51,341 bases of DNA from Candidatus Omnitrophota bacterium (GCA_025453395.1 JALOQK010000009.1:1-51341); one strand, 5' to 3'. Shown: positions 99-46,864, counted from the stretch's first letter. Program-made: numbers and translations. The notes: a model not told the origin generated them from the letters alone.

Positions 99-310
99 AG
101 CTGTAAGCTGTAAGCTATAAGCTATAAGCTAAATCATAAGAATGAGTAGTGAGGATGAGTAATGAGGTTAGCATGAGAATTAGGTTGAGGAAAAAATTTA
201 AAGATTTTTCCCATACCTGACCCTCACCCCAAACCCACAACCCATAACTCACAACTGACCCTTATAACTTATACTTTTACCTTTTGACTTTTTCCTTTTT
301 ACTTTTATAA
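99..310. repeat. heptamer-periodic composite palindromic element (~30 units of 7 nt)
   Basis: Tiles in one register: AGCTGTA x2, AGCTATA x2, ..., ATGAGNN units, an AT loop, AACCCAC/AACTCAC units, then CTTTTAC/CTTTTGA units. Confidence 0.9.
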
Positions 311-311
311 T
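284..311 (+). promoter_or_regulatory. sigma70-type promoter: TTGACT-16-TATAAT, ATG 7 nt downstream (leaderless)
   Basis: TTGACT at 284-289 and TATAAT at 306-311. The ATG is at 318 and no Shine-Dalgarno is present. Confidence 0.55.
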
Positions 312-317
312 ATATCC

Positions 318-1214
318 ATGCTTCCCAACCAAATGCGCACAGACACATTAACCGGCTTTTTCCTAAGAGAACACCTTGAGCCTTTCCTGCAAGAACAATT
401 CTTAACCACTAAGATTGCCAATACAACCTTTACCATCGCCTTAATTGACCTGGATCGCTTCAAAAGATTCAATGACCGCTATGGCCACCAATTCGGCGAT
501 GAAGTCTTAAAGTATTTCTCCGGCACAATAAAACTAACCCTGCGCGATACCATATTCTTTATTTTCCGCTATGGCGGAGACGAATTTATCGTTGTATTCC
601 CGGAGAAAACCCCTAAAGAAGTCCATTCTATACTTACAAAATTCCGGCATAACCTGCGTTACCGGCCATTCCTGGCTCAAAATCGGCTATACCACATAAG
701 AATGAGCTGCGGCATTGCCGCTGGAATGCATGACGCCAAAACTCCGGCAGAGCTTATCAAGAAAGCCGATGAAGCAATGTATTACGCGAAGCGCCACGGA
801 AGAAATTCCATTACCCACGCTGATCAAATCTTCTGTCTTCGCTTAGTCAACTTTATCGCGGCAATCATAAGCGGAACATTTATAGTTTTAAGCATCCTTA
901 TTGCTTCTAACATTTTCTCTGTAAACATTGAAAGCACGCTGACTTATATAGTAAATAAAATACAGTCCGTTGGAAAAACGCCTATTAAAAAGAATCCGCT
1001 TTCGCACAAAAATTCACCAACAGCTCGGCAAGAAACCTGTGATATCGTTATCTTAAAAAACGGCGGGATATTCGAAGGCAAAATCATCACCGAAACCCAA
1101 GAAAAAATTATCTTTAACCTCTATATGGCCAACGGCGAAGGCATGGCTACTTTTTATAAAAAAGAAATAGAACAGATAAAACACGACCAGCCCCGCATAT
1201 CCGGCTCTCCTTAA
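318..1214 (+). CDS. GGDEF-domain diguanylate cyclase with C-terminal membrane anchor and short beta-rich tail
   Basis: RYGGDEF active-site motif and DRFKRFNDRYGH. A hydrophobic helix (LVNFIAAIISGTFIVLSILIASNIF) follows the catalytic domain. No N-terminal sensor domain. Confidence 0.85.
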   Translation: MLPNQMRTDTLTGFFLREHLEPFLQEQFLTTKIANTTFTIALIDLDRFKRFNDRYGHQFGDEVLKYFSGTIKLTLRDTIFFIFRYGGDEFIVVFPEKTPKEVHSILTKFRHNLRYRPFLAQNRLYHIRMSCGIAAGMHDAKTPAELIKKADEAMYYAKRHGRNSITHADQIFCLRLVNFIAAIISGTFIVLSILIASNIFSVNIESTLTYIVNKIQSVGKTPIKKNPLSHKNSPTARQETCDIVILKNGGIFEGKIITETQEKIIFNLYMANGEGMATFYKKEIEQIKHDQPRISGSP

Positions 1215-3936: not shown

Positions 3937-3970
3937 ATAGGCAATCACTCAACTAACTAAGGACAAATAT

Positions 3971-4097
3971 GATAAGAATGAGAAGTTAGGATGAGCAATG
4001 AGTTTAGGGTGAGAATTAGGTTGAGGAAGAAATTTAAATATTTTTCTCACAACCCACCCTCATCCTATTCCCACAACTCACGCCCCACATCTGACCC
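3971..4097. repeat. second copy of the GA-rich arm / AT loop / C-rich arm element
   Basis: The left arm and loop are about 85% identical by eye to 135-210. The right arm shares the CCCACAAC, ACTCAC and CTGACCC blocks. Confidence 0.85.
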
Positions 4098-4112
4098 TAT
4101 TAATATGGAAAA

Positions 4113-4679: not shown

Positions 4680-4715
4680 ATATGTCCTCCCATTAATAGT
4701 TATTAAGACGATTAG

Positions 4716-4744
4716 ATTGTAACATTAAATTTTAGAGGTGTCCA
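4716..4744 (-). promoter_or_regulatory. candidate pyrE promoter: TGGACA-17-TACAAT
   Basis: Minus-strand hexamers at 4744-4739 and 4721-4716. The ~35-nt leader contains GGGAGG. Confidence 0.45.
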
Positions 4745-4754
4745 CCCCATCTTT

Positions 4755-4806
4755 AGCTTAAAGCTTATAGCTTATAGCTTACAGCTTACAGCTTACAGCT
4801 GATAAG
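4755..4806. repeat. AGCTTAY heptamer array (7 units), inverse orientation of 99-130
   Basis: AGCTTAA AGCTTAT x2 AGCTTAC x3 AGCTGAT. Its reverse complement gives the AGCTGTA/AGCTATA units seen at 99-130. Confidence 0.9.
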
Positions 4807-4809
4807 TTT

Positions 4810-4838
4810 TTGACAAGTAGCCCTTTGATTGTTATGAT
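4810..4838 (+). promoter_or_regulatory. sigma70-type promoter: TTGACA-17-TATGAT, ATG 7 nt downstream (leaderless comF)
   Basis: TTGACA at 4810-4815 and TATGAT at 4833-4838. The ATG is at 4845 and no Shine-Dalgarno is present. Confidence 0.6.
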
Positions 4839-4844
4839 ATCTTC

Positions 4845-5573
4845 ATGCTTAAGAAAGCATTCAGCAACCTAGTGGATTTGATTTACCCCCGGGTATGCTT
4901 AGCTTGCGCCAAGAAACTGCCTGCCAGCGCAAAAGAAGAAACCTACCTATGCGGGCCTTGTACCAATAAAATCAAAAGAAACAGGCCTCCTTTCTGCCAT
5001 TGTTGCGGGAAACATTTAAATGAGAAAAGTTTGCATAAAAACCTCTGCGTTACCTGCCTTAAAATGCCTCTTTATTTTGACCGCGCTTTTAGCCCCTATA
5101 TCTATGAAGATATCTTAAAAACCTTAATCCATAAATTCAAATACCAGCGCAAAGACTATCTGGGCGGCTTTTTATCCAGTATGCTGCTTGACTTTATCCA
5201 AGATTATGACTTGCCAATTGCCTATTTAGACCTTATAATACCAATTCCGTTACATAAAGCTAAATTAAGAGAACGCGAGTTTAATCAAGCAGAAGTTTTG
5301 GCAAAAGGCATATCCCATAGGTTTAATAAGCCCATGGATACTTTTATCTTAACGCGCCGGACAAATACTAAAAGCCAAACCGCTCTTGATCATGAGAAAA
5401 GATTTCAGAACATCCGGGGGAACTTCGCTTTAGAAAGCCATTCCTCCGTAGAAGGAAAGAATATCCTTCTGGTGGATGATGTCCTAACAACCGGAGCGAC
5501 CTGTTCGGAAGCCGCGCGAATTTTAAAAGAAAAAGGCGCTGGAGTAGTCTTTGTTTTAACCTTGGCCAGCTAA
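4845..5573 (+). CDS. comF: ComF-family phosphoribosyltransferase-like protein
   Basis: N-terminal Cys clusters (CLAC..CGPC, CHCCG..CVTC) plus C-terminal PRT motif LLVDDVLTTGAT. Confidence 0.8.
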   Translation: MLKKAFSNLVDLIYPRVCLACAKKLPASAKEETYLCGPCTNKIKRNRPPFCHCCGKHLNEKSLHKNLCVTCLKMPLYFDRAFSPYIYEDILKTLIHKFKYQRKDYLGGFLSSMLLDFIQDYDLPIAYLDLIIPIPLHKAKLREREFNQAEVLAKGISHRFNKPMDTFILTRRTNTKSQTALDHEKRFQNIRGNFALESHSSVEGKNILLVDDVLTTGATCSEAARILKEKGAGVVFVLTLAS

Positions 5574-8871: not shown

Positions 8872-8876
8872 AATTT

Positions 8877-9010
8877 TCAGCTTTCAGCTATCAGCTTTCA
8901 GCTATCAGCAAAACTAAAACCAAAACTAAAACCAAAAAAATAAAACTAAAAGTTAGTTTCGGTTTAGTATTTAGTTTTTAGCTGACGGCTGATAGCTGAC
9001 AGCTGACGGC
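8877..9010. repeat. heptamer-periodic long imperfect palindrome (19 units) between alr and tsaB
   Basis: TCAGCTT/TCAGCTA x4, then AAAACTA-type units, centre near 8950, TTTAGTT-type units, then CTGACGG/CTGATAG x4, which complement the first arm. Confidence 0.9.
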
Positions 9011-9681
9011 TTTCTTATTTGGCATTCCTTGGGATACAAATAAATCGGCTTTATCCCAAATGAATCCGTGAATTGCTTACACTGCAATTTTTCCTGCGCT
9101 ACCTGGACAAGATAACGCGGCTTAATCCCCCACCAATCCTTATCCAGAAAAAAGCTCTTATGGACAGAGGCCTGAAATTGTTTTTGATACAGAGAAAGCC
9201 CGTCCCCCACAAACAAACTGGGGCCTTTTATTTTAAGGCATAACTCTTCCGGAGTAACAAGCATATAATTTGACGATCTCTTAAAAACTTTGTGGTTTTG
9301 ATAAATAGCTGCGTAGACCATGCCTCGCCTGGCATCCATAACCGGAACAATCTGGATATTTCTTTCTTTGTCCGCTGCGGCTTTTGCCAAGACATCCAGC
9401 CCGCAAAGCCCAATAACCGGCTTATCCAAAGAAAACGCGATGCCTTTTATAAACGACAAGCCAATGCGGATACCGGTAAAAGACCCGGGCCCCAGATTTG
9501 CCGCCAAATAATCCAAATCTTCCCATTCCCAATTAAGACTTGTCAGGATTTGTGACAAAATATGCGTAATATTCTCAGAAAGTTTTACCCCGGTATAAAG
9601 ACGGTATTCATAGATCTTTTCACCATCTAAAATACCCACAGAAAAAAAGTTAGTGCTTGTATCAATAGCAAGTATTTTCAT
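8971..9681 (-). CDS. tsaB: tRNA t6A37 threonylcarbamoyltransferase complex subunit TsaB
   Basis: ILAIDTS start and GPGSFTGIRIG motif. The last ~11 codons (PSAVSYQPSAKN) are encoded by the heptamer repeat. Confidence 0.85.
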   Translation of the reverse strand: MKILAIDTSTNFFSVGILDGEKIYEYRLYTGVKLSENITHILSQILTSLNWEWEDLDYLAANLGPGSFTGIRIGLSFIKGIAFSLDKPVIGLCGLDVLAKAAADKERNIQIVPVMDARRGMVYAAIYQNHKVFKRSSNYMLVTPEELCLKIKGPSLFVGDGLSLYQKQFQASVHKSFFLDKDWWGIKPRYLVQVAQEKLQCKQFTDSFGIKPIYLYPKECQIRKPSAVSYQPSAKN

Positions 9682-10175
9682 ATCTTAAATTCCCGTAGTA
9701 ATTCCTGATAGCGCGCGCCTTTTGCGCTAAATAAGATCTGCCGAGATGTGTTCCCTGTTATCTTTAATTCTACCAGAAGGCATTCTTTTGGAAAGATCTT
9801 TCCTAATCGTTCTGGCCATTCAATCAAAGTAACCGCATCATCATAAAAATACTCTTCATAGCCGATATCGGCTATATCTTTTATCTTATCCAAGCGGTAT
9901 AAATCAAAGTGATTAAGCGGTATTTTACCAGATAAATACTGCTGCATAATTACAAAGGTGGGGCTGGTGACAGCGTTTTTTATGCTTAAGCCTTTTGCCA
10001 CGCCTTTGGCAAAAACAGTCTTACCGGCTCCTAAATTTCCTTTCAAACAGATAATATCTGCTTTCTTCAAGAAACCCGCCAACCGCCCTGCGATAGAAAG
10101 TGTCTTCTTAAAGGAAGAGGAATTCAATTTAAACTTAGAAATGCCGATAGCCTTGTGGTTGTATATTTTTTTCAT
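9678..10175 (-). CDS. tsaE: tRNA t6A37 ATPase TsaE
   Basis: P-loop GNLGAGKTVFAKG, SPTF and DLYRL motifs. The start may lie downstream, because the ORF overlaps the thiL end by 41 nt. Confidence 0.8.
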   Translation of the reverse strand: MKKIYNHKAIGISKFKLNSSSFKKTLSIAGRLAGFLKKADIICLKGNLGAGKTVFAKGVAKGLSIKNAVTSPTFVIMQQYLSGKIPLNHFDLYRLDKIKDIADIGYEEYFYDDAVTLIEWPERLGKIFPKECLLVELKITGNTSRQILFSAKGARYQELLREFKI

Positions 10176-12061: not shown

Positions 12062-12101
12062 ATTAATACCTCCATAATCACATGTTGTCACAAAGTCACA
12101 G

Positions 12102-12350
12102 ATCACAGGACATAATAAAGCGTAAAGCTAAAAGCGCAAAACTAAAAACTATAGCGTAAAATTAAAAACTTTTAAATCTTGAATTATGGTTTTACCTGCC
12201 TACCGGCAGGCAGGCCAAATAAATTCCAAATTTTAAATCCCAAACAAATTCAAAATCCCAAATCCAAAACTAGCGCGCAAAATCACAGGACACAATAAAG
12301 CGTAAAGCTAAAAGCGCAAAACTAAAAACTATAGCGGAAAATTAAGAACT
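12102..12350. repeat. two 69-nt direct repeats (period 180 nt) of the GCGTAAA family, flanking a GC hairpin and AAATYCC heptamers
   Basis: 12102-12170 and 12282-12350 differ at 3 positions. CCTGCC-TACC-GGCAGG lies at 12195-12210. AAATTCC AAATTTT AAATCCC ... lies at 12221-12270. Confidence 0.9.
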
Positions 12351-12397
12351 TGCTTATCATATTTTTTAACGTTTGGCTTGGCTGTGTTTTTGTAAGC

Positions 12398-18224: not shown

Positions 18225-18416
18225 AGTTTCCTTAAGTCTGCTTTCTGGTTTTTGCTTCCGGCACTGATCCCGACGTAACGTCGGGACTAATGTGCCTCCA
18301 GCAAAAACCATCAAGAAATAATTAAACGCTGACAAACTTCCAGGTGTAATCCTAAAATCTTTTTAAATCCCCCAATCATTGTTTTTACAAATACCGAGGC
18401 ATGTTTCTCTGCCTTA

Positions 18417-18500
18417 AAAGCGCAAAGCTAAAAGCGTAAAGCGAAAAACTATAGTGTAAAATTTAAAACGTTTTGAGCTTTAAATTATGGTTTTACCTGC
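18417..18500. repeat. GCGTAAA-family element, fourth copy
   Basis: AAAAGCGCAAAGCTAAAAGCGTAAAGCGAAAAACTATAGTGTAAAATTTAAAACGTTTTGAGCTTTAAATTATGGTTTTACCTGC aligns with 2578-2653 and 12117-12199. Confidence 0.85.
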
Positions 18501-18509
18501 TAAAAATAT

Positions 18510-19913
18510 CTATAATTTCCTACGCCAGGTGGTGCCGTTTTTGGTATCCTCTAAAATTACGCCTTTTGCTTCCAAATCTTTTCTAATTTGGTCTGCTTCA
18601 GAAAATTTCTTTTCTTTCTTAAGCGCAATTCTTTTATCAATCAAAACTTTAATCGCGTCAGCATCATCTTCTAGTCCTTGCGCAGTAAAATCAAGTTTTA
18701 AACCCAACAAACCTGACAAATCCTTTAAAAGACTTCTAGCATGAGAGACAAAATAAGGATCATTGATATTTTTATTGGTTAAATTCACTAATTCAAAGAT
18801 ACTCGCCAATGCTTGAGGAGTATTAAAGTCATCATCCATAGCCTTGACAAAATCATCCTTAACTTTTTCTATCTGCGGTATCTTTTCTGACTTCCGGCTT
18901 CTGATTTCTGACTTCTGGCTCTCTATTTTCCCAAACAGTATCGAAATCCGTTCCAACGCTTGTTTTGCTTCGCTTATTTTCTCATCAGTGTAATCCATGG
19001 GGCTAGAGTAATGCGCGGATAAGAAGAATAATTTCAGGAAATCTGCGTTCTTATACTTATCCATAAAATCTTTTATGGTAATAAAATTCCCTGATGACTT
19101 TGCCATCTTCTGGCCGTTGATAGTCAATAACCCCCCATGCATCCAATATTTGGCAAAAGGCTTTTCCGTCAAGGCTTCTGCTTGGGCGATTTCATTCTCA
19201 TGATGCGGGAAAATTAAATCTCTTCCCCCTGCGTGAATATCCAAGGTGTCCGTCTTTAGAAACTTCTGGCTCATCACCGAGCACTCTATGTGCCAACCTG
19301 GCCTGCCCTTTCCCCAAGGACTTTCCCAAAACGGCTCATTTTCTTTTGATCTCTTCCAGAGCGCAAAATCTAAAGGATCTTTTTTGTGTTCTGATGGATC
19401 AATCCGGGCGCCAGTTTCCATCTCTTCTATATTCTGCCCCGATAATTTTCCATAATCAGGGAAACTTCTCACATTAAAATATACATCGCCTCCTGCTTCA
19501 TAGGCATGGCCTTTTTCAATCAATGCCTCGATGTATTTTATCATCTCCGGAATATTTTCCGTTGCCCGCGGCTCAAAATCCCCTCGCAGAATACCCAGGC
19601 TGTCTAAATCCTCATGATAACTTTTGATATATTTATCAACCAGTTCTTTCCAATCAGTTTTTAGTTCATTGGCGCGCTTGATGATCTTATCGTCTATATC
19701 GGTAATATTGCGCACAAAATTGACCTTAAAACCTCTATACTTTAAATAACGGCGGATAACATCAAAAATATACAGGCTTCTGGCGTGTCCTATGTGGCTT
19801 TGATCATAAACCGTTACTCCGCAGGTATAGATATTAACATTAGGAGGGCTTAAAGGAACAAACTCTTCTTTTTTACGCTCTAAAGAATTATAAATATAAA
19901 TCATAGTAGTCAT
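18510..19913 (-). CDS. cysS: cysteine--tRNA ligase
   Basis: HIGHARS and KMAKSSGN class-I signatures and the DDDFNT anticodon-domain motif. Confidence 0.93.
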   Translation of the reverse strand: MTTMIYIYNSLERKKEEFVPLSPPNVNIYTCGVTVYDQSHIGHARSLYIFDVIRRYLKYRGFKVNFVRNITDIDDKIIKRANELKTDWKELVDKYIKSYHEDLDSLGILRGDFEPRATENIPEMIKYIEALIEKGHAYEAGGDVYFNVRSFPDYGKLSGQNIEEMETGARIDPSEHKKDPLDFALWKRSKENEPFWESPWGKGRPGWHIECSVMSQKFLKTDTLDIHAGGRDLIFPHHENEIAQAEALTEKPFAKYWMHGGLLTINGQKMAKSSGNFITIKDFMDKYKNADFLKLFFLSAHYSSPMDYTDEKISEAKQALERISILFGKIESQKSEIRSRKSEKIPQIEKVKDDFVKAMDDDFNTPQALASIFELVNLTNKNINDPYFVSHARSLLKDLSGLLGLKLDFTAQGLEDDADAIKVLIDKRIALKKEKKFSEADQIRKDLEAKGVILEDTKNGTTWRRKL

Positions 19914-21144: not shown

Positions 21145-21870
21145 CTAATCCTTTCTTTTGATGATCTCTCCGGTGATAACCAAATCTTCGGCAGTTGTAA
21201 CTTTAATATTGCTATAAGCGCCTAAAACCATGCTGACCTTATGCCCTGTTTTCTCTACAAGCATAGCATCGTCGGTTACATCAAATTTACCGTACTTCTT
21301 GTACGCGCTTAAAATAATATCTTTCTTAAAGCCTTGCGGCGTCTGCGCCTCCCAAATGAGTTTTCTATCTAATGTTTTTTCTACGAGTATTTGATTCTGA
21401 ACTTTTGGATTTTTACTTATAATTTCTCCTTTTTCCTTTTTCCTTTTGACTTGTTTTATCGTCGCCTTAACCGGCACACCCGCCACTGCCGCCCCACTTT
21501 TTGAGACTTCTTTTAAGACCCGGCTTATAATTTCACCGGTTACAAAGGGCCTGCCGGCGTCATGAATTAAGACTATTTCTGAACAATTACTGACTTGACT
21601 CAATCCGCAAGCTACAGAATCCTGCCGCCTTAAACCGCCTAAAACTATTTTTCCCGCTTTATCTATCCGGTAACGACGAATAATCTTAAAAACTTCCTGA
21701 CAGATACGCTTATTGACTACGACAATAATTTCGTCTATGCACGGATGACGGTTAAATACTTCCAAAGAATAAGCCAATAGCGGCTTGCCGGATAATTTTA
21801 TTAAGGGTTTAGCTACGCGGGATTTCAGGCGCTTGCCTTTTCCCGCCGCGACAACTATTGCTGTTACCAT
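21145..21870 (-). CDS. ispD: 2-C-methyl-D-erythritol 4-phosphate cytidylyltransferase
   Basis: AAGKGKRL, HDAGRPF and AQTPQGF motifs. Carries a ~20-aa lysine-rich insertion encoded by a heptamer tract. Confidence 0.9.
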   Translation of the reverse strand: MVTAIVVAAGKGKRLKSRVAKPLIKLSGKPLLAYSLEVFNRHPCIDEIIVVVNKRICQEVFKIIRRYRIDKAGKIVLGGLRRQDSVACGLSQVSNCSEIVLIHDAGRPFVTGEIISRVLKEVSKSGAAVAGVPVKATIKQVKRKKEKGEIISKNPKVQNQILVEKTLDRKLIWEAQTPQGFKKDIILSAYKKYGKFDVTDDAMLVEKTGHKVSMVLGAYSNIKVTTAEDLVITGEIIKRKD

Positions 21871-30465: not shown

Positions 30466-30523
30466 AAAACTTTTGCCCTTTACTTGTGATTCTTACTTTT
30501 AACTTTTATTAATATTTAACTTG

Positions 30524-30577
30524 AATCAGGCATGCCTCTGGCGCTTATGCCTGATTAACACTTGCCACTGGCAAGTG
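30524..30577 (-). terminator. two consecutive stem-loops after ilvE (possible terminator/attenuator before mcsA)
   Basis: 10-bp stem AATCAGGCAT/ATGCCTGATT and 8-bp stem CACTTGCC/GGCAAGTG. Neither has a clear U-tract. Confidence 0.35.
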
Positions 30578-30581
30578 CCAT

Positions 30582-34813: not shown

Positions 34814-34865
34814 AATATTATATATTTAGTTATAATACACTAATAAGTCAAAATATTATATCCTA

Positions 34866-34987
34866 TGTTCCCGGCGGTGTCAACCAATTAAAAAGCCCGC
34901 TGCGACACCCCCGCTCCCGACGCTGGCTTCGCCAGGCCGGGACTTCTAGGATCGCAGCTTCGGCTTGACGAAGAAGCGTGGGAACCA
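34866..34987. ncRNA. GC-rich structured element (unclassified; candidate small RNA or lysS leader)
   Basis: Visibly GC-rich island in AT-rich surroundings. The closing stem GTTCCC/GGGAAC encloses three hairpins (34876-34909, 34915-34942, 34958-34973). Confidence 0.3.
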
Positions 34988-35021
34988 TAAAAAAAGACCT
35001 CCGTATTTTAATACGCAGGCC
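34988..35021 (-). terminator. intrinsic terminator after htpX
   Basis: The minus strand reads CCUGCGUAUU-AA-AAUACGGAGG (one mismatch) followed by UCUUUUUUUA. Confidence 0.6.
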
Positions 35022-35049
35022 TTCATCTATCCTATTGAAAAGCAACTCT

Positions 35050-44364: not shown

Positions 44365-44952
44365 TTACAGCTTTGCCTCTATTATACCGGCATTCTTGAT
44401 TTTATGCTTTAATAATTCACCCCTGAACATCTTCATCTGTTTTCCCGTAATACGCCTAAAATTATTGCGCATTAACCACAGGCAAGCGTTTATGAACTGT
44501 TCATGGGTAAAAACTACTATAAAGTTACCCTTAACCTTTTTTAACCTTTTTATTGCGCATCTGGCCCTGGAAATAAAATCATGAAAAGACTCTGCCCCAT
44601 ATCCATCACAATAAAATGGATCTGACTTTTTCCAATACTTTTTTGCTAAAGGCGTTCTTTGCGTAACATTGGTATTGCGGTATTTTTTCTCTGATAAATA
44701 GGTAAACTCATGCACATCCCATTGCTCACAAGGGACATTCTTAAATTTTACTCTTGTTTCTTGCGCTGTTTGTTTGGCGCGCAGGTATTTTGAGACTATG
44801 ATAAGAGACGGGGTTTCTTTAAAGTTTAAGGCTAACCCCTTAGCTTGCTTAAGCCCATTTTTAGTTAAGGGATTTTCCGACGGGGAGAAACCTTTCTTTC
44901 CGATATTGGCACAGCTTTCACCATGGCGGATAAACCAAATAGTCTTCTTCAC
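44365..44952 (-). CDS. histidine phosphatase superfamily protein
   Basis: RHGE catalytic motif (WFIRHGES) and a second His in FTHEQF. Confidence 0.75.
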   Translation of the reverse strand: MKKTIWFIRHGESCANIGKKGFSPSENPLTKNGLKQAKGLALNFKETPSLIIVSKYLRAKQTAQETRVKFKNVPCEQWDVHEFTYLSEKKYRNTNVTQRTPLAKKYWKKSDPFYCDGYGAESFHDFISRARCAIKRLKKVKGNFIVVFTHEQFINACLWLMRNNFRRITGKQMKMFRGELLKHKIKNAGIIEAKL

Positions 44953-45305
44953 TAAGATTGGGTTTTTACTTTATCTTTCTTTAAATGATTAATTCCTTTA
45001 ACTACCAGAAAAATACAGACAGCTACGATAAAAAAATCAATTACCGTATTTATAAATAACCCGTAATTAAGAGTAACTGCGGGAATTGAAGCAGCAGGCG
45101 GCGTATTAATAACCGCTTCCTTAAGTATTAATTTTAGGTTCTTAAAATCAACCCCTCCGAGCAATACTCCTATCGGAGGCATTATTACATCGCCTACCAA
45201 AGAAGTAACTATTTTACTAAACGAAGCTCCTATCACAATGCCTACCGCCATATCAACAGCATCGCCCTTGACTGCAAACTCTTTAAATTCTTTTATTATG
45301 GACAT
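44952..45305 (-). CDS. mscL: large-conductance mechanosensitive channel (copy 1)
   Basis: [24 protein letters not shown]1 signature. 117 aa. AAGGAGG upstream. Confidence 0.9.
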
Positions 45306-45377: not shown

Positions 45378-46151
45378 CTATATCTTTTTGAGAATATCCT
45401 TAGCGACTTTTTCACCTGACAATAACATCCCCCCAAAAATAGGTCCCATCCTGGGGCCCCCAATAACAGCGTTAGCGCACATCCCGCAGACATAAAAACC
45501 AGTGGCTGCCTTTTTAGAATTTCTTACAATTGCATCCTCTCCCGCATCCGCCCACATTGAATTCTCCCCCATAAGCTTGCCGGATTTTGTATTTAAACGG
45601 ATACCGGATTTCTTCTCAATTATCCGCGCCACCTGAGCAGGATGCCCCGTAGCATCAACTACAAACTTTGAGCGTATTGTTATAGGGTCAACATGTAAAC
45701 TTGCCATCTCAACCGCGGTCCAGTTTAACACCAAACCGCAGACTTTTTTCTTACGTATCATGACATCCTCGGCGCTAAAAAGGTTAAAGATCTTAAGGCC
45801 GGCTTTTACTGCCTTAGAGCAAATCGTGGATACTGCCTCAATAGAATCACAAAGATAATAGCCTTTTTCATATTCTCTTGTTTTAATCTGAAACTCGTCC
45901 AATATTTTCTTAGCCGACTCCTGAAAAACTATTTCATTAAACATTATCCCGCCGCCCCACATACCACCCCCAACCGAAAGTTTCTTCTCAAATAACACGA
46001 CCCTGCTTCCAGCTTTTGCTAAATAATACCCGCAAACCATGCCTGCTGGCCCCGCGCCAACAATCGCCACATCAACGTCCAGCGCCTTTAAAAGCTTCTG
46101 GCTGTATGATTCAATTATGGCCCGAGAAATCTTTATCTCATCCAGTTTCAC
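45378..46151 (-). CDS. thi4: thiazole synthase, Thi4 family
   Basis: VGAGPAG FAD/NAD motif and Thi4-type body ([13 protein letters not shown]). GTG start with AAGGGG upstream. A TPP riboswitch lies in the leader. Confidence 0.88.
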
Positions 46152-46170
46152 TTGTTTCCCCTTTCTTTGG

Positions 46171-46325
46171 GTGTTATCTTTATGTTTACGCCCCGCGCTT
46201 ATTTGAATTGCGCGGGCGCATTGCTTTCTGCAACTACACCCGGCGCAATCTGATGCGCCGGTGTGTTGTCTTTCTGTTTACGCCCCGCGCTTATTTGAAT
46301 TGCGCGGGCGCATTGCTTTCTGCAA
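46171..46325. repeat. two 63-nt direct repeats (period 92 nt), each containing a GC-rich hairpin, separated by a third hairpin
   Basis: 46171-46233 and 46263-46325 differ at 2 positions. Each holds CGCCCCGCGC-N11-GCGCGGGCG. CCGGCGCA-N6-TGCGCCGG lies between them. Confidence 0.9.
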
Positions 46326-46357
46326 TGAAAAACCCTTATGCCAGATGCATAAGGGTT
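46326..46357 (-). terminator. intrinsic terminator (riboswitch expression platform)
   Basis: The minus strand reads AACCCUUAUGC-AUCUG-GCAUAAGGGUU followed by UUUCAUU, directly after the aptamer. Confidence 0.6.
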
Positions 46358-46364
46358 GACTACT

Positions 46365-46507
46365 TGGTTTTCCCTACGCTGGCATTATCCAGATCCCGAC
46401 AAATTATAATTTGTCGGGATTTCGCCACTTGTCTTAAAGCAATGGCGAACAGGTTCATCGGGTAACTCCGTCTAACGGAGACTCTCAGGCTGCTTTACAG
46501 CCTCCCC
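46365..46507 (-). promoter_or_regulatory. TPP (THI-box) riboswitch in the thi4 leader, carrying a 55-nt insertion
   Basis: The minus strand reads GGGGAGGCUGUAAAGCAGCCUGAGAG...ACCCGAUGAACCUG[55 nt]AUCUGGAUAAUGCCAGCGUAGGGAA. This matches the universally conserved CUGAGA and ACCUGAUCUGGAUAAUGCCAGCGUAGGGAA cores. Confidence 0.8.
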
Positions 46508-46519
46508 TTATTTTTTCTC

Positions 46520-46864
46520 TTAACTTGCCTTTCCTTTCTTTAAACGGTTGATCCCTTTTACAACCATGAAAATGCAAAATGCGACAATAAAGAAATCAAT
46601 TACCTTATTTATAAATAACCCGTAATTAAGAGTAATTGCGGGAATTGAAGCAGCAGGCGGCGTGTTAATAATCGCTTCTTTGAGGACTATCTTTAGGTTC
46701 TTAAAATCAACCCCTCCGAGCAATACTCCTATCGGAGGCATTATCACATCGCCCACCAAAGAAGTAACGATCTTACTAAATGAAGCCCCTATCACAATGC
46801 CAACTGCCATATCAACGGCATCACCCTTGGCTGCAAACTCTTTGAATTCTTTTATTATGGACAT
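46520..46864 (-). CDS. mscL: large-conductance mechanosensitive channel (copy 2)
   Basis: Same signature as copy 1. By hand alignment, 10 substitutions over the first 111 residues. Confidence 0.9.

Follow-up and report, generated by a model that had tools for sequence, protein, structure and literature searches.

Why bacteria favour tandem repeats with 7-base units, and what such repeats do, has been an open question since they were first described. To our knowledge, experiments have thrown light on very few such loci, hmw of Haemophilus influenzae being one. As summarized in later papers, among the long simple sequence repeats (LSSRs) of many bacterial genomes, those with heptanucleotide units are the most abundant class (Mrazek et al. 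2007, via PMC4679880; also PMC4692102). The same secondary accounts give a polymerase-footprint model of slippage proposed for 7-base units (Mrazek et al. 2007, via PMC4679880) and report short tandemly repeated repetitive (STRR) heptamers from the cyanobacterium Calothrix PCC 7601 (cited in PMC4692102). Here, we analyze a heptamer-rich spacer of a Candidatus Omnitrophota bacterium, at positions 99-311 of a 51,341-base stretch of DNA (JALOQK010000009.1:1-51341), which we call the window. The spacer ends just ahead of a gene for a GGDEF diguanylate cyclase and contains a long imperfect palindrome.

Some heptamer systems have been described at length. Xanthomonas carries about 185 GGGAATC arrays, and in 70-75 cases these stand as inverted pairs at short distance, with the potential to fold into stem-loops or G-quadruplexes (Rehm et al. 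2015, PMC4692102). Between Xcc and Xac, the repeat type (singular or inverted pair) is usually kept and the repeat lengths differ, and the G-rich heptamers of Xanthomonas (GGGAATC) and Nostoc (GGGGAYT) form G-quadruplexes in vitro (PMC4692102). TAACTGA arrays are found in marine Beggiatoaceae, cyanobacteria and Bacteroidetes (MacGregor 2015, PMC4679880). In Beggiatoaceae they lie just upstream of start codons that have no ribosome-binding sites, and the TAACTGA sets comprise 169 direct and one indirect (PMC4679880). The (ATCTTTC)n repeats of hmw1A and hmw2A in H. influenzae lie in the 5' untranslated region, and the one upstream of hmw1A is transcribed (Rapun-Araiz et al. 2025, PMC12721329). 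It belongs to a 122-nt imperfect hairpin with mismatches and bulges, at -175 to -54 from the ATG, in which ten AUCUUUC units face an arm that is about 50% G and has a predicted G-quadruplex. RNase III cuts this hairpin, and the cut is required both for expression and for changes in repeat number (PMC12721329).

The stretch 99-311 is a local example of such known bacterial heptamer repeats and no novel element type. An imperfect palindrome of about 130 bp is present in one copy, with four period-7 arrays around it. We give an even chance to the reading that the whole is a repeat-filled spacer, in which slippage-derived heptamers are tolerated and a promoter is embedded in the last array. The parts of the locus and its second copy are as follows.

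99-133, plus strand: array of AGCTGTA (twice), AGCTATA (twice) and AGCTAAA, from Tandem Repeats Finder and a lag-7 identity of 0.93.
134-265, minus strand: inner imperfect palindrome, a dispersed repeat of which this is copy 1 of two, from nhmmer, covariance model and fold.
221-243, minus strand: GGGTTGTGGGTTTGGGGTGAGGG, a canonical four-tract G-quadruplex motif of GGGNNNN heptamers, from a motif scan.
260-273, plus strand: CCTTATA and ACTTATA units, outer-stem partner of the TATAAGC units at 113-133, from tiling and the minus-strand fold.
274-311, plus strand: T-rich array of CTTTTAC, CTTTTGA, CTTTTTC, CTTTTTA and CTTTTAT-AAT, from Tandem Repeats Finder (261-307).
318-1214, plus strand: GGDEF diguanylate cyclase gene (Pfam GGDEF).
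3966-4100, minus strand: copy 2 of the inner palindrome, between two minus-strand genes, from nhmmer, alignments and covariance model.

The period-7 signal is far above chance. Identity at lag 7, the fraction of bases equal to the base seven positions on, is 0.53 across 99-310 against 0.27 +/- 0.03 in 2000 dinucleotide-preserving shuffles (z 8.4). None of the shuffles reaches 0.53, and the signal is not one that shuffled sequence reproduces. Lags 6 and 13 are likewise significant across the region. Tandem Repeats Finder reports period-7 arrays at 99-131 (AGCTATA, 4.7 copies, 96% matches), 141-166, 220-255 and 261-307, and these arrays require 4-10% indels. By block, lag-7 identity is 0.93 (99-133), 0.43 (134-168), 0.25 (169-219), 0.73 (220-259) and 0.66 (260-310). 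The block 134-168 reaches 0.73 at lag 13 and hence alternates 6- and 7-base units, and the centre, 169-219, is without any period. The original prediction had seen about 30 heptamers tiling 99-309 without a break in register. This does not survive the count of about 21 periodic units in four arrays (99-133, 141-166, 220-259 and 260-310), nor the alternating and aperiodic blocks and the indels. A register common to arrays of unlike units carries no information, because unit boundaries are arbitrary. The further suggestion that three units match two helical turns finds no support, apart from the distance of 22 bases between the first base of the -35 hexamer and that of the -10 hexamer.

The proposed nested imperfect palindrome with roughly complementary halves is, by contrast, well supported. 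Read on the plus strand, a purine-rich arm (134-192) is followed by a loop (196-204) and then by a C-rich arm (208-265), and the AT-rich loop is closed by GGAAAAA (189-195) and TTTTTCC (205-211), as predicted. The two arms pair with each other as an inner stem, and the TATAAGC units of about 113-133 pair with the CTTATAA units of 260-273 as an outer stem in the minus-strand fold. For minus-strand RNA the predicted fold is one hairpin with about 76 pairs (-72.1 kcal/mol, z -6.4), and plus-strand RNA reaches -47.6 kcal/mol (z -3.5). Aligned in a strand-neutral way, the left arm and the reverse complement of the right arm share 47 Watson-Crick positions, with 11 transversion mismatches and four gaps, and complementarity at the DNA level is 64% Watson-Crick. 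Wobble positions in this alignment number 12 on the minus strand and one on the plus strand (binomial p 0.003). The mismatches had been correctly described as G-U or A-C; what had been missed is their strict one-sidedness, which favours the strand antisense to the GGDEF gene. A covariance model of 134-265 scores 153.9 bits on the minus and 62.7 bits on the plus strand, and the single-stranded DNA folds of the two strands are nearly alike (-26.3 vs -21.9 kcal/mol). On the minus strand, G accounts for 47% of the G-rich arm of copy 1, and this arm includes the heptamers GGGTTGT, GGGTTTG and GGGTGAG, which make up the motif at 221-243. This predicted minus-strand G-quadruplex, GGGTTGTGGGTTTGGGGTGAGGG, is the only G3+N1-7 x4 motif in the window with both strands scanned. 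Periodicity is loose in the pyrimidine arm, where TGAG is spaced at 7, 6, 7, 11 and 12.

The last units of the spacer contain the expected -35 and -10 hexamers, a strong sigma-70-type match. TTGACT (284-289), a 16-base spacer and TATAAT (306-311) agree with the consensus at 11 of 12 positions and tie for the best promoter-like match in the first 5 kb, where two matches reach this score. The A of the GGDEF ATG (318) is the seventh base past the -10 hexamer. Because the hexamer ends six bases ahead of the ATG, the GGDEF mRNA is predicted to be leaderless. One gene caller places the start at Met6 instead (333; 293 residues). The second 11/12 match (4810-4838, -10 at 4833) has the same geometry and ends six bases before the ATG at 4845 of a DZR/phosphoribosyltransferase gene. 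Neither the GGDEF (318) nor the DZR/phosphoribosyltransferase gene (4845) has a Shine-Dalgarno sequence, and leaderless mRNAs are thus a predicted trait of this Omnitrophota genome. Arrays of (AAAAGNN)n resembling the T-rich array occur at 30475-30510 and 21423-21447 and in the related loci L042 and L065.

Under the repeat-filled spacer, the main cellular effect of the element would be the promoter carried in the T-rich array. With one unit more or one unit fewer between -35 and -10, the 16-base spacer would become 23 or 9 bases long and the GGDEF promoter would be turned off. If array length varies in populations, the promoter would act as a slippage-controlled switch of cyclic di-GMP signalling in an uncultured, probably host-dependent phylum. 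If array length is constant, the locus would be an ordinary example of repeat-rich spacer DNA. Closer strains were sought for a comparison of array lengths, and the best homologs had 48% identity for the GGDEF protein and 68% for Alr. GGDEF orthologs on four other Omnitrophota contigs follow gltX and a small open reading frame (ORF) of the same strand, and their spacers are short and plain. Since these orthologs have no such element upstream, it is not a conserved regulator of the GGDEF gene.

Period-7 arrays are widespread in the spacers of the contig, and the local slippage accident that the original prediction had allowed for can be set aside. All own-genome counts rest on the 51-kb window. 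In a scan with a sliding frame of 42 bases, 63 positions have an identity of at least 0.7 at lag 7, followed by 17 at lag 14, ten at lag 6 and two at lag 12; every remaining lag from 2 to 15 has none. Lag-7 z exceeds 4 in 7 of 20 intergenic regions, and z exceeds 3 in none of 120 coding chunks. Period-7 intergenic regions lie at 1-317, 2570-2670, 4680-4844, 8872-8970, 12107-12397 and 30466-30581, and also at 18336-18509 (z 2.6). Several of them are palindromes of the arrays themselves. Arrays end a few bases before starts without a Shine-Dalgarno sequence at alr (8871), at a maf-M48 gene (2569) and at a gene starting at 12106. The following examples, for which no strand is assigned, stand out.

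2570-2712: TAAAGCG-type and CGCTTTN arrays on either side of a loop, then an AGCTGAC array entering the 3' end of the HI0933-like ORF.
4753-4801: (AGCTTAN)x7 array (94% matches in Tandem Repeats Finder), located exactly between a minus-strand and a plus-strand promoter match that diverge.
8872-9015: near-perfect hairpin of inverted TCAGCTT/AGCTGAC and CAAAACT/AGTTTTA arrays in the tsaB-alr spacer, z about -9 on both strands.

The divergent promoter matches around 4753-4801 are at 4744-4716 (minus) and 4810-4838 (plus). In the tsaB-alr hairpin, a 14-base super-period at 8875-8909 is mirrored at 8980-9011. A match of 8885-9005 to the plant microRNA precursor MIR9563 (E 1.6e-07) was dismissed, as it is below the gathering score and long regular hairpins give this false lead. 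We suggest that the arrays arise and change length by slipped-strand mispairing that favours 7-base units, along the lines of the polymerase-footprint idea. An inverted partner might then arise by inverted duplication or hairpin-templated copying, which would explain the mirrored super-period, and the product would be tolerated in spacers.

Heptamer arrays also extend into genes. AGCTGAC arrays lengthen the 3' ends of two minus-strand genes (8971-9011 and 2671-2705): TsaB has 13 array-encoded residues (RKPSAVSYQPSAKN) after its conserved ...YLYPKECQI end, and the HI0933-like protein has a similar array-encoded tail, AISCQPLAVS. Period-7 arrays inside coding sequence number two, at 21423-21447 in ispD and at 18885-18917 in the cysteinyl-tRNA synthetase gene. 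In ispD (minus strand), three in-frame AAAAGGA units (21 bases) encode part of a KRKKEKGE stretch. A second repeat family has four minus-strand copies (2570-2660, 12107-12200, 12282-12362 and 18416-18500), each facing a downstream minus-strand gene. Its layout is GGTAAAACCATAATT..., a promoter-like pair TTCAAA/TTTAAA-16/17-TATAGT and then (TTTACGC)n heptamers, which in two of the four copies reach the start codon directly, without a ribosome-binding site. Judged from its layout, this family looks like a portable promoter with a heptamer leader. A duplication of about 70 bases, 180 bases apart (12100-12170 vs 12280-12350), includes an array, the promoter-like part and the first codons of an IF-2B-family gene. 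A G+C-rich hairpin, CCTGCCTACCGGCAGGCAGG (12190-12215), recurs nearly unchanged in the distant Omnitrophota genomes L006 (about 2180-2200) and L025 (about 9880-9900), and heptamer arrays flank each occurrence.

Related Omnitrophota genomes, in which the original prediction had proposed a search for the same unit families, carry heptamer arrays in inverted pairs with different units. We compared 20-kb loci around alr from 80 Omnitrophota genomes (1.19 Mb). The commonest tandem-repeat period is 7, with 104 rows vs 36-67 for periods 6, 8, 9, 10 and 12, and arrays of at least 2.8 units are present in 34 of the 80 loci. With 12 arrays in 51 kb vs 75 in 1.19 Mb, the window is about 3.7 times denser. 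Among neighbouring arrays (less than 200 bases apart), about 11 pairs are inverted complements and one is direct. The tsaB-alr junction is a heptamer hot spot and holds about one third of all arrays in the 20-kb loci. The two genes abut in most of the 80 genomes, and about 13 have a heptamer palindrome between them. Its units vary by genome (AGCTGAN, ATCGCAT/TAAGCGA, TAGCGTA/ACGCTAA, ATAAGTC/AACTTAT, AAAGCGN and others), and arrays lie just upstream of alr in L004, L006, L008, L015, L021, L025, L028, L033, L044, L045, L065 and L081. Because most relatives have none at the same junction, the element looks dispensable. The better-folding strand at tsaB-alr is sense in about six cases, antisense in four and equal in three, and sense-strand wobble bias was abandoned as a general test of RNA function there, given this mixed outcome. 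The lineage nevertheless offers a comparative handle, with tsaB-alr empty in most genomes and complementary array pairs of different units elsewhere. Its arrays occur at promoters and before starts without ribosome-binding sites, and they extend the ends of two proteins.

The 134-265 element itself had no homolog in the 80 related loci by nhmmer and covariance model. A match in L072 is an unrelated perfect terminator-like hairpin, and a match in L028 is not significant. A metagenome scan with the 19-mer TGAGAATTAGGTTGAGGAA, common to both copies, gave four matches, all by chance and with no element around them. The motif GGGTCAG...CTGACCC bounds the stems of both copies (255-261 and 4093-4099) and of the unrelated L072 hairpin (2774-2812), which may be coincidence.

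The only other copy known lies 3.8 kb away, where nhmmer matches 134-265 to 3972-4098 (E 1e-21). Copy 2 lies 13 bases past the stop codon of a phosphoribosyltransferase gene and 18-30 bases ahead of the HI0933-like gene start, and it is free of flanking heptamer arrays. Located within a row of minus-strand genes, it must be transcribed, provided those genes are. Its RNA folds at -52 kcal/mol on the minus vs -33 on the plus strand. The copies agree best in the loop (94% identity), followed by the purine-rich arm of the plus strand (87%) and the C-rich arm (71%). A consensus fold of both copies reaches -31.7 on the minus vs -10.3 on the plus strand; among its 45 minus-strand pairs, eight are changed one-sidedly, one two-sidedly and none is broken, weak evidence given that there are two sequences and that RNAalifold picks compatible pairs. 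The G-tracts of copy 2 fit a relaxed pattern only (loops of up to 10 bases), and no comparable promoter match adjoins it. A minus-strand promoter-like pair in the conserved arm, TTACTC-18-TATGAT (162-133; TTGCTC-18-TATCAT in copy 2), was found by eye, matches 8 of 12 consensus positions and was not flagged by the promoter scan. A small plus-strand ORF, MSNEVSMRIRLRKKFKDFSHT, reappears in copy 2 and was rejected as coding, as it extends there to 116 codons and has no proper ribosome-binding site. Four of its nine codon differences between the copies are silent, too few to support coding.

The genomic setting is ordinary. The window is nearly the whole of a 52.5-kb contig (Joint Genome Institute metagenome 3300037461), with its first base 19 bases into the contig, and has a G+C content of 41%. 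Its alanine racemase is 59-68% identical to those of many metagenome-assembled Candidatus Omnitrophota genomes, with none nearer. The gene content consists of ordinary housekeeping genes, and no transposase, RAYT (Y1 transposase) or integrase is among the annotated proteins of the 51-kb window. GC skew of the plus strand is -0.10 to -0.22 across the whole window. Since nearly all genes lie on the minus strand, this G-rich strand is probably the leading strand of replication. On the minus strand, the first 20 contig bases contain AGGAGG-ATCT-ATG, the start of a gene to the left of copy 1. With this leftward gene and the rightward GGDEF gene, 99-311 is a spacer between divergent genes. The promoter scan gave no minus-strand match in 1-400 and none in 1-98 or 262-317 at its threshold. 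A scan for intrinsic terminators (G+C-rich stem followed by a T run) was negative for 1-400 on both strands, the tRNA and tmRNA scans found nothing, and the element matched no Rfam family at the gathering threshold. Permissive Rfam matches by E-value were to plant microRNA-precursor models only, which we discarded as a reflection of generic long hairpins.

Several observations weigh against the repeat-filled spacer. The 12:1 wobble bias exceeds that of the other palindromes in the window. It may follow from the G-over-C excess of the minus strand, but the bias of 2570-2712 is opposite, and replication skew alone therefore cannot explain it. One arm of the palindrome is conserved far better than the other (87% vs 71%), and all nine predicted pairs that differ between the copies still pair on the minus strand. 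Identical units occur in different genomes in 26 pairs vs 5.3 +/- 2.5 for letter-shuffled units, a count inflated by orthologous arrays; this recurrence is a hint that constraint or common descent, and not free slippage, is at work. The main rival is a cis-acting minus-strand RNA hairpin similar to that of hmw, which would work through an RNase III cut, an exonuclease block or termination, would set the level of the downstream (or upstream) minus-strand gene and would be tuned by array length. We regard this as possible yet rather doubtful. The greater stability of minus-strand RNA in both copies (-72 vs -48 and -52 vs -33 kcal/mol), the wobble bias, the consensus fold with its retained pairs and the position of copy 2 in a minus-strand gene row all point this way. 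So do the minus-strand gene with AGGAGG-N4-ATG starting to the left of copy 1 and dimensions resembling hmw: about 130 nt, an arm of 47% G, a G-quadruplex motif and a location of copy 2 at about -165 to -30. However, copy 1 lies between divergent genes with no minus-strand promoter match to its right, which makes transcription of the whole doubtful, and the weak TTACTC-18-TATGAT pair would start transcription downstream of the hairpin. Covariation from two copies is anecdotal, the more so with RNAalifold selecting compatible pairs, and no sense-strand bias is seen in the class's other palindromes. A wider version, in which long RNA hairpins made of paired inverted heptamer arrays would be a genome-wide class put to use by some Omnitrophota lineages, appears unlikely. 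If true, housekeeping genes throughout the genome would have RNase III-type processing or stability elements, similar to the single one of hmw, in their 5' untranslated or intercistronic regions. Hairpin-templated copying would preserve the complementarity of the arms as the units change in sequence, and the tsaB-alr palindromes would be one evolving regulatory site and not repeated accidents.

The remaining explanations have less support. Two copies in unrelated contexts 3.8 kb apart, with sharp homology boundaries and a terminal-inverted structure overall (ATAAGAATGAG ... CTGACCCTTAT), could be insertions of a small non-autonomous mobile element, of MITE or REP type, into two spacers, with the arrays of copy 1 growing later. 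The absence of flanking arrays at copy 2 is consistent with this, as is one strand folding better than the other, which is seen in elements moving as single-stranded hairpins. The single-stranded DNA folds differ little, though (-26.3 vs -21.9 kcal/mol), no target-site duplication is seen, the 51 kb hold no transposase, RAYT or integrase, and with two copies known and nothing similar in the 80 related genomes or the metagenome scan, we consider mobility improbable. We are slightly more sceptical of a role at the DNA level, where a cruciform or the minus-strand G-quadruplex would modulate the GGDEF promoter or insulate divergent promoters. The sole G-quadruplex motif of the window (221-243) is indeed on the template strand about 40 bases upstream of the -35 hexamer, the AGCTTAN array at 4753-4801 is also placed between divergent promoter matches, and the G-rich heptamers of Xanthomonas and Nostoc form G-quadruplexes in vitro (PMC4692102). 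Arms with 64% Watson-Crick pairing are poor substrates for cruciform extrusion, however, and copy 2 has relaxed G-tracts and no comparable promoter match next to it. Finally, the region starts 117 bases from the contig end, with the palindrome within 330 bases of it, and assemblers often break at repeats. An assembly artefact is nonetheless hardly credible, and we rejected it: end palindromes from assembly are perfect, but here there are indels and Watson-Crick pairing is 64%, and a diverged paralog lies inside the contig. Many further arrays lie deep in the contig, and independent assemblies of related genomes show similar ones.

Some further features of the window were noted. A thiamine pyrophosphate (TPP) riboswitch match below the gathering threshold (30.5 vs 54.3 bits) lies on the minus strand at 46354-46518, upstream of a thi4 gene (45378-46151). 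Between the two are three tandem 46-base G+C-rich hairpin repeats (46178-46322), and the region 46152-46519 (minus) folds with a z of about -9 to -10. Two mscL paralogs (44952-45305 and 46520-46864) flank the thi4/riboswitch region. At 34814-35049 (minus), downstream of an aspartyl/lysyl-type tRNA synthetase gene, a G+C-rich structured intergenic stretch (-83 kcal/mol, z -5.1) ends in a hairpin and T run and has no Rfam match. It may represent an RNA that escaped annotation or else an extended terminator region.

Repetitive extragenic palindromic (REP) sequences are 20-40 bases long and occur in hundreds of copies together with a RAYT transposase, and MITEs (miniature inverted-repeat transposable elements) come with target-site duplications. 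The element at 134-265 shares with these and with bacterial interspersed mosaic elements (BIMEs) an imperfect palindrome dispersed in intergenic DNA, with copy 2 just past a stop codon inside a gene row, a position that such elements often take in operons. It differs from REP/BIME and MITE in being 130 bases long and present in two copies, with no RAYT gene among the annotated window proteins and no target-site duplication at either copy; its ends are inverted because the whole element is palindromic. CRISPR arrays, with repeats of 23-50 bases and unique spacers of similar length between them, do not fit contiguous units of 7 bases. Integron attC sites, retrons and CRISPR were weighed on the anatomy and dropped, as core-site motifs, a reverse transcriptase, an integrase and spacers are all absent. 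The original prediction was thus right that REP, CRISPR and MITE do not apply, but the type is not an unrecognized one. Tandem 7-base units in at least three copies beyond chance, in many intergenic arrays, place the locus among heptanucleotide simple sequence repeats, and the pairing arms (134-192/208-265) and four G3 tracts with short loops (221-243) place it among inverted G-rich heptamer pairs, both part of a described class (PMC4692102, PMC4679880). A full-text literature search for Omnitrophota together with heptamer returned no report, and the spacers are of a described kind in a phylum without an earlier report in that search.

The locus resembles the LSSR and STRR repeats in its head-to-tail 7-base units, degenerate variants in each array, intergenic location, many arrays per genome, patchy occurrence across the phylogeny and preference for seven. 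Unlike these, it belongs to an Omnitrophota host in which the families AGCTNNN, AAAGCGN, AAATCCN, AAAAGNN and GGGTTNN coexist, nested in one long palindrome. As with TAACTGA, arrays end just before starts without a Shine-Dalgarno sequence and identical units recur across distant genomes. TAACTGA arrays have one dominant unit in direct orientation, whereas many units, usually in inverted pairs, are found here. GGGNNNN heptamers with G-quadruplex potential in one arm of an inverted pair are shared with Xanthomonas and Nostoc. Here, however, there are four G-tracts only and the unit is not conserved genome-wide, and the partner arm is U/C-rich with 12 wobbles, in contrast to the exact C-rich complement in Xanthomonas. 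The likeness to hmw lies in an imperfect hairpin of about 120-130 nt that sets a pyrimidine-rich heptamer arm against a G-rich arm with a G-quadruplex motif. The hairpin is likewise tens to about 170 bases upstream of a start codon (copy 2 at about -165 to -30), and a T-rich heptamer repeat adjoins a promoter. The arm order is reversed relative to hmw, with the G-rich arm 5' on the minus strand, and the pyrimidine arm is loosely periodic. Copy 1 is located between divergent genes, and the neighbours are housekeeping and signalling genes rather than an adhesin gene.

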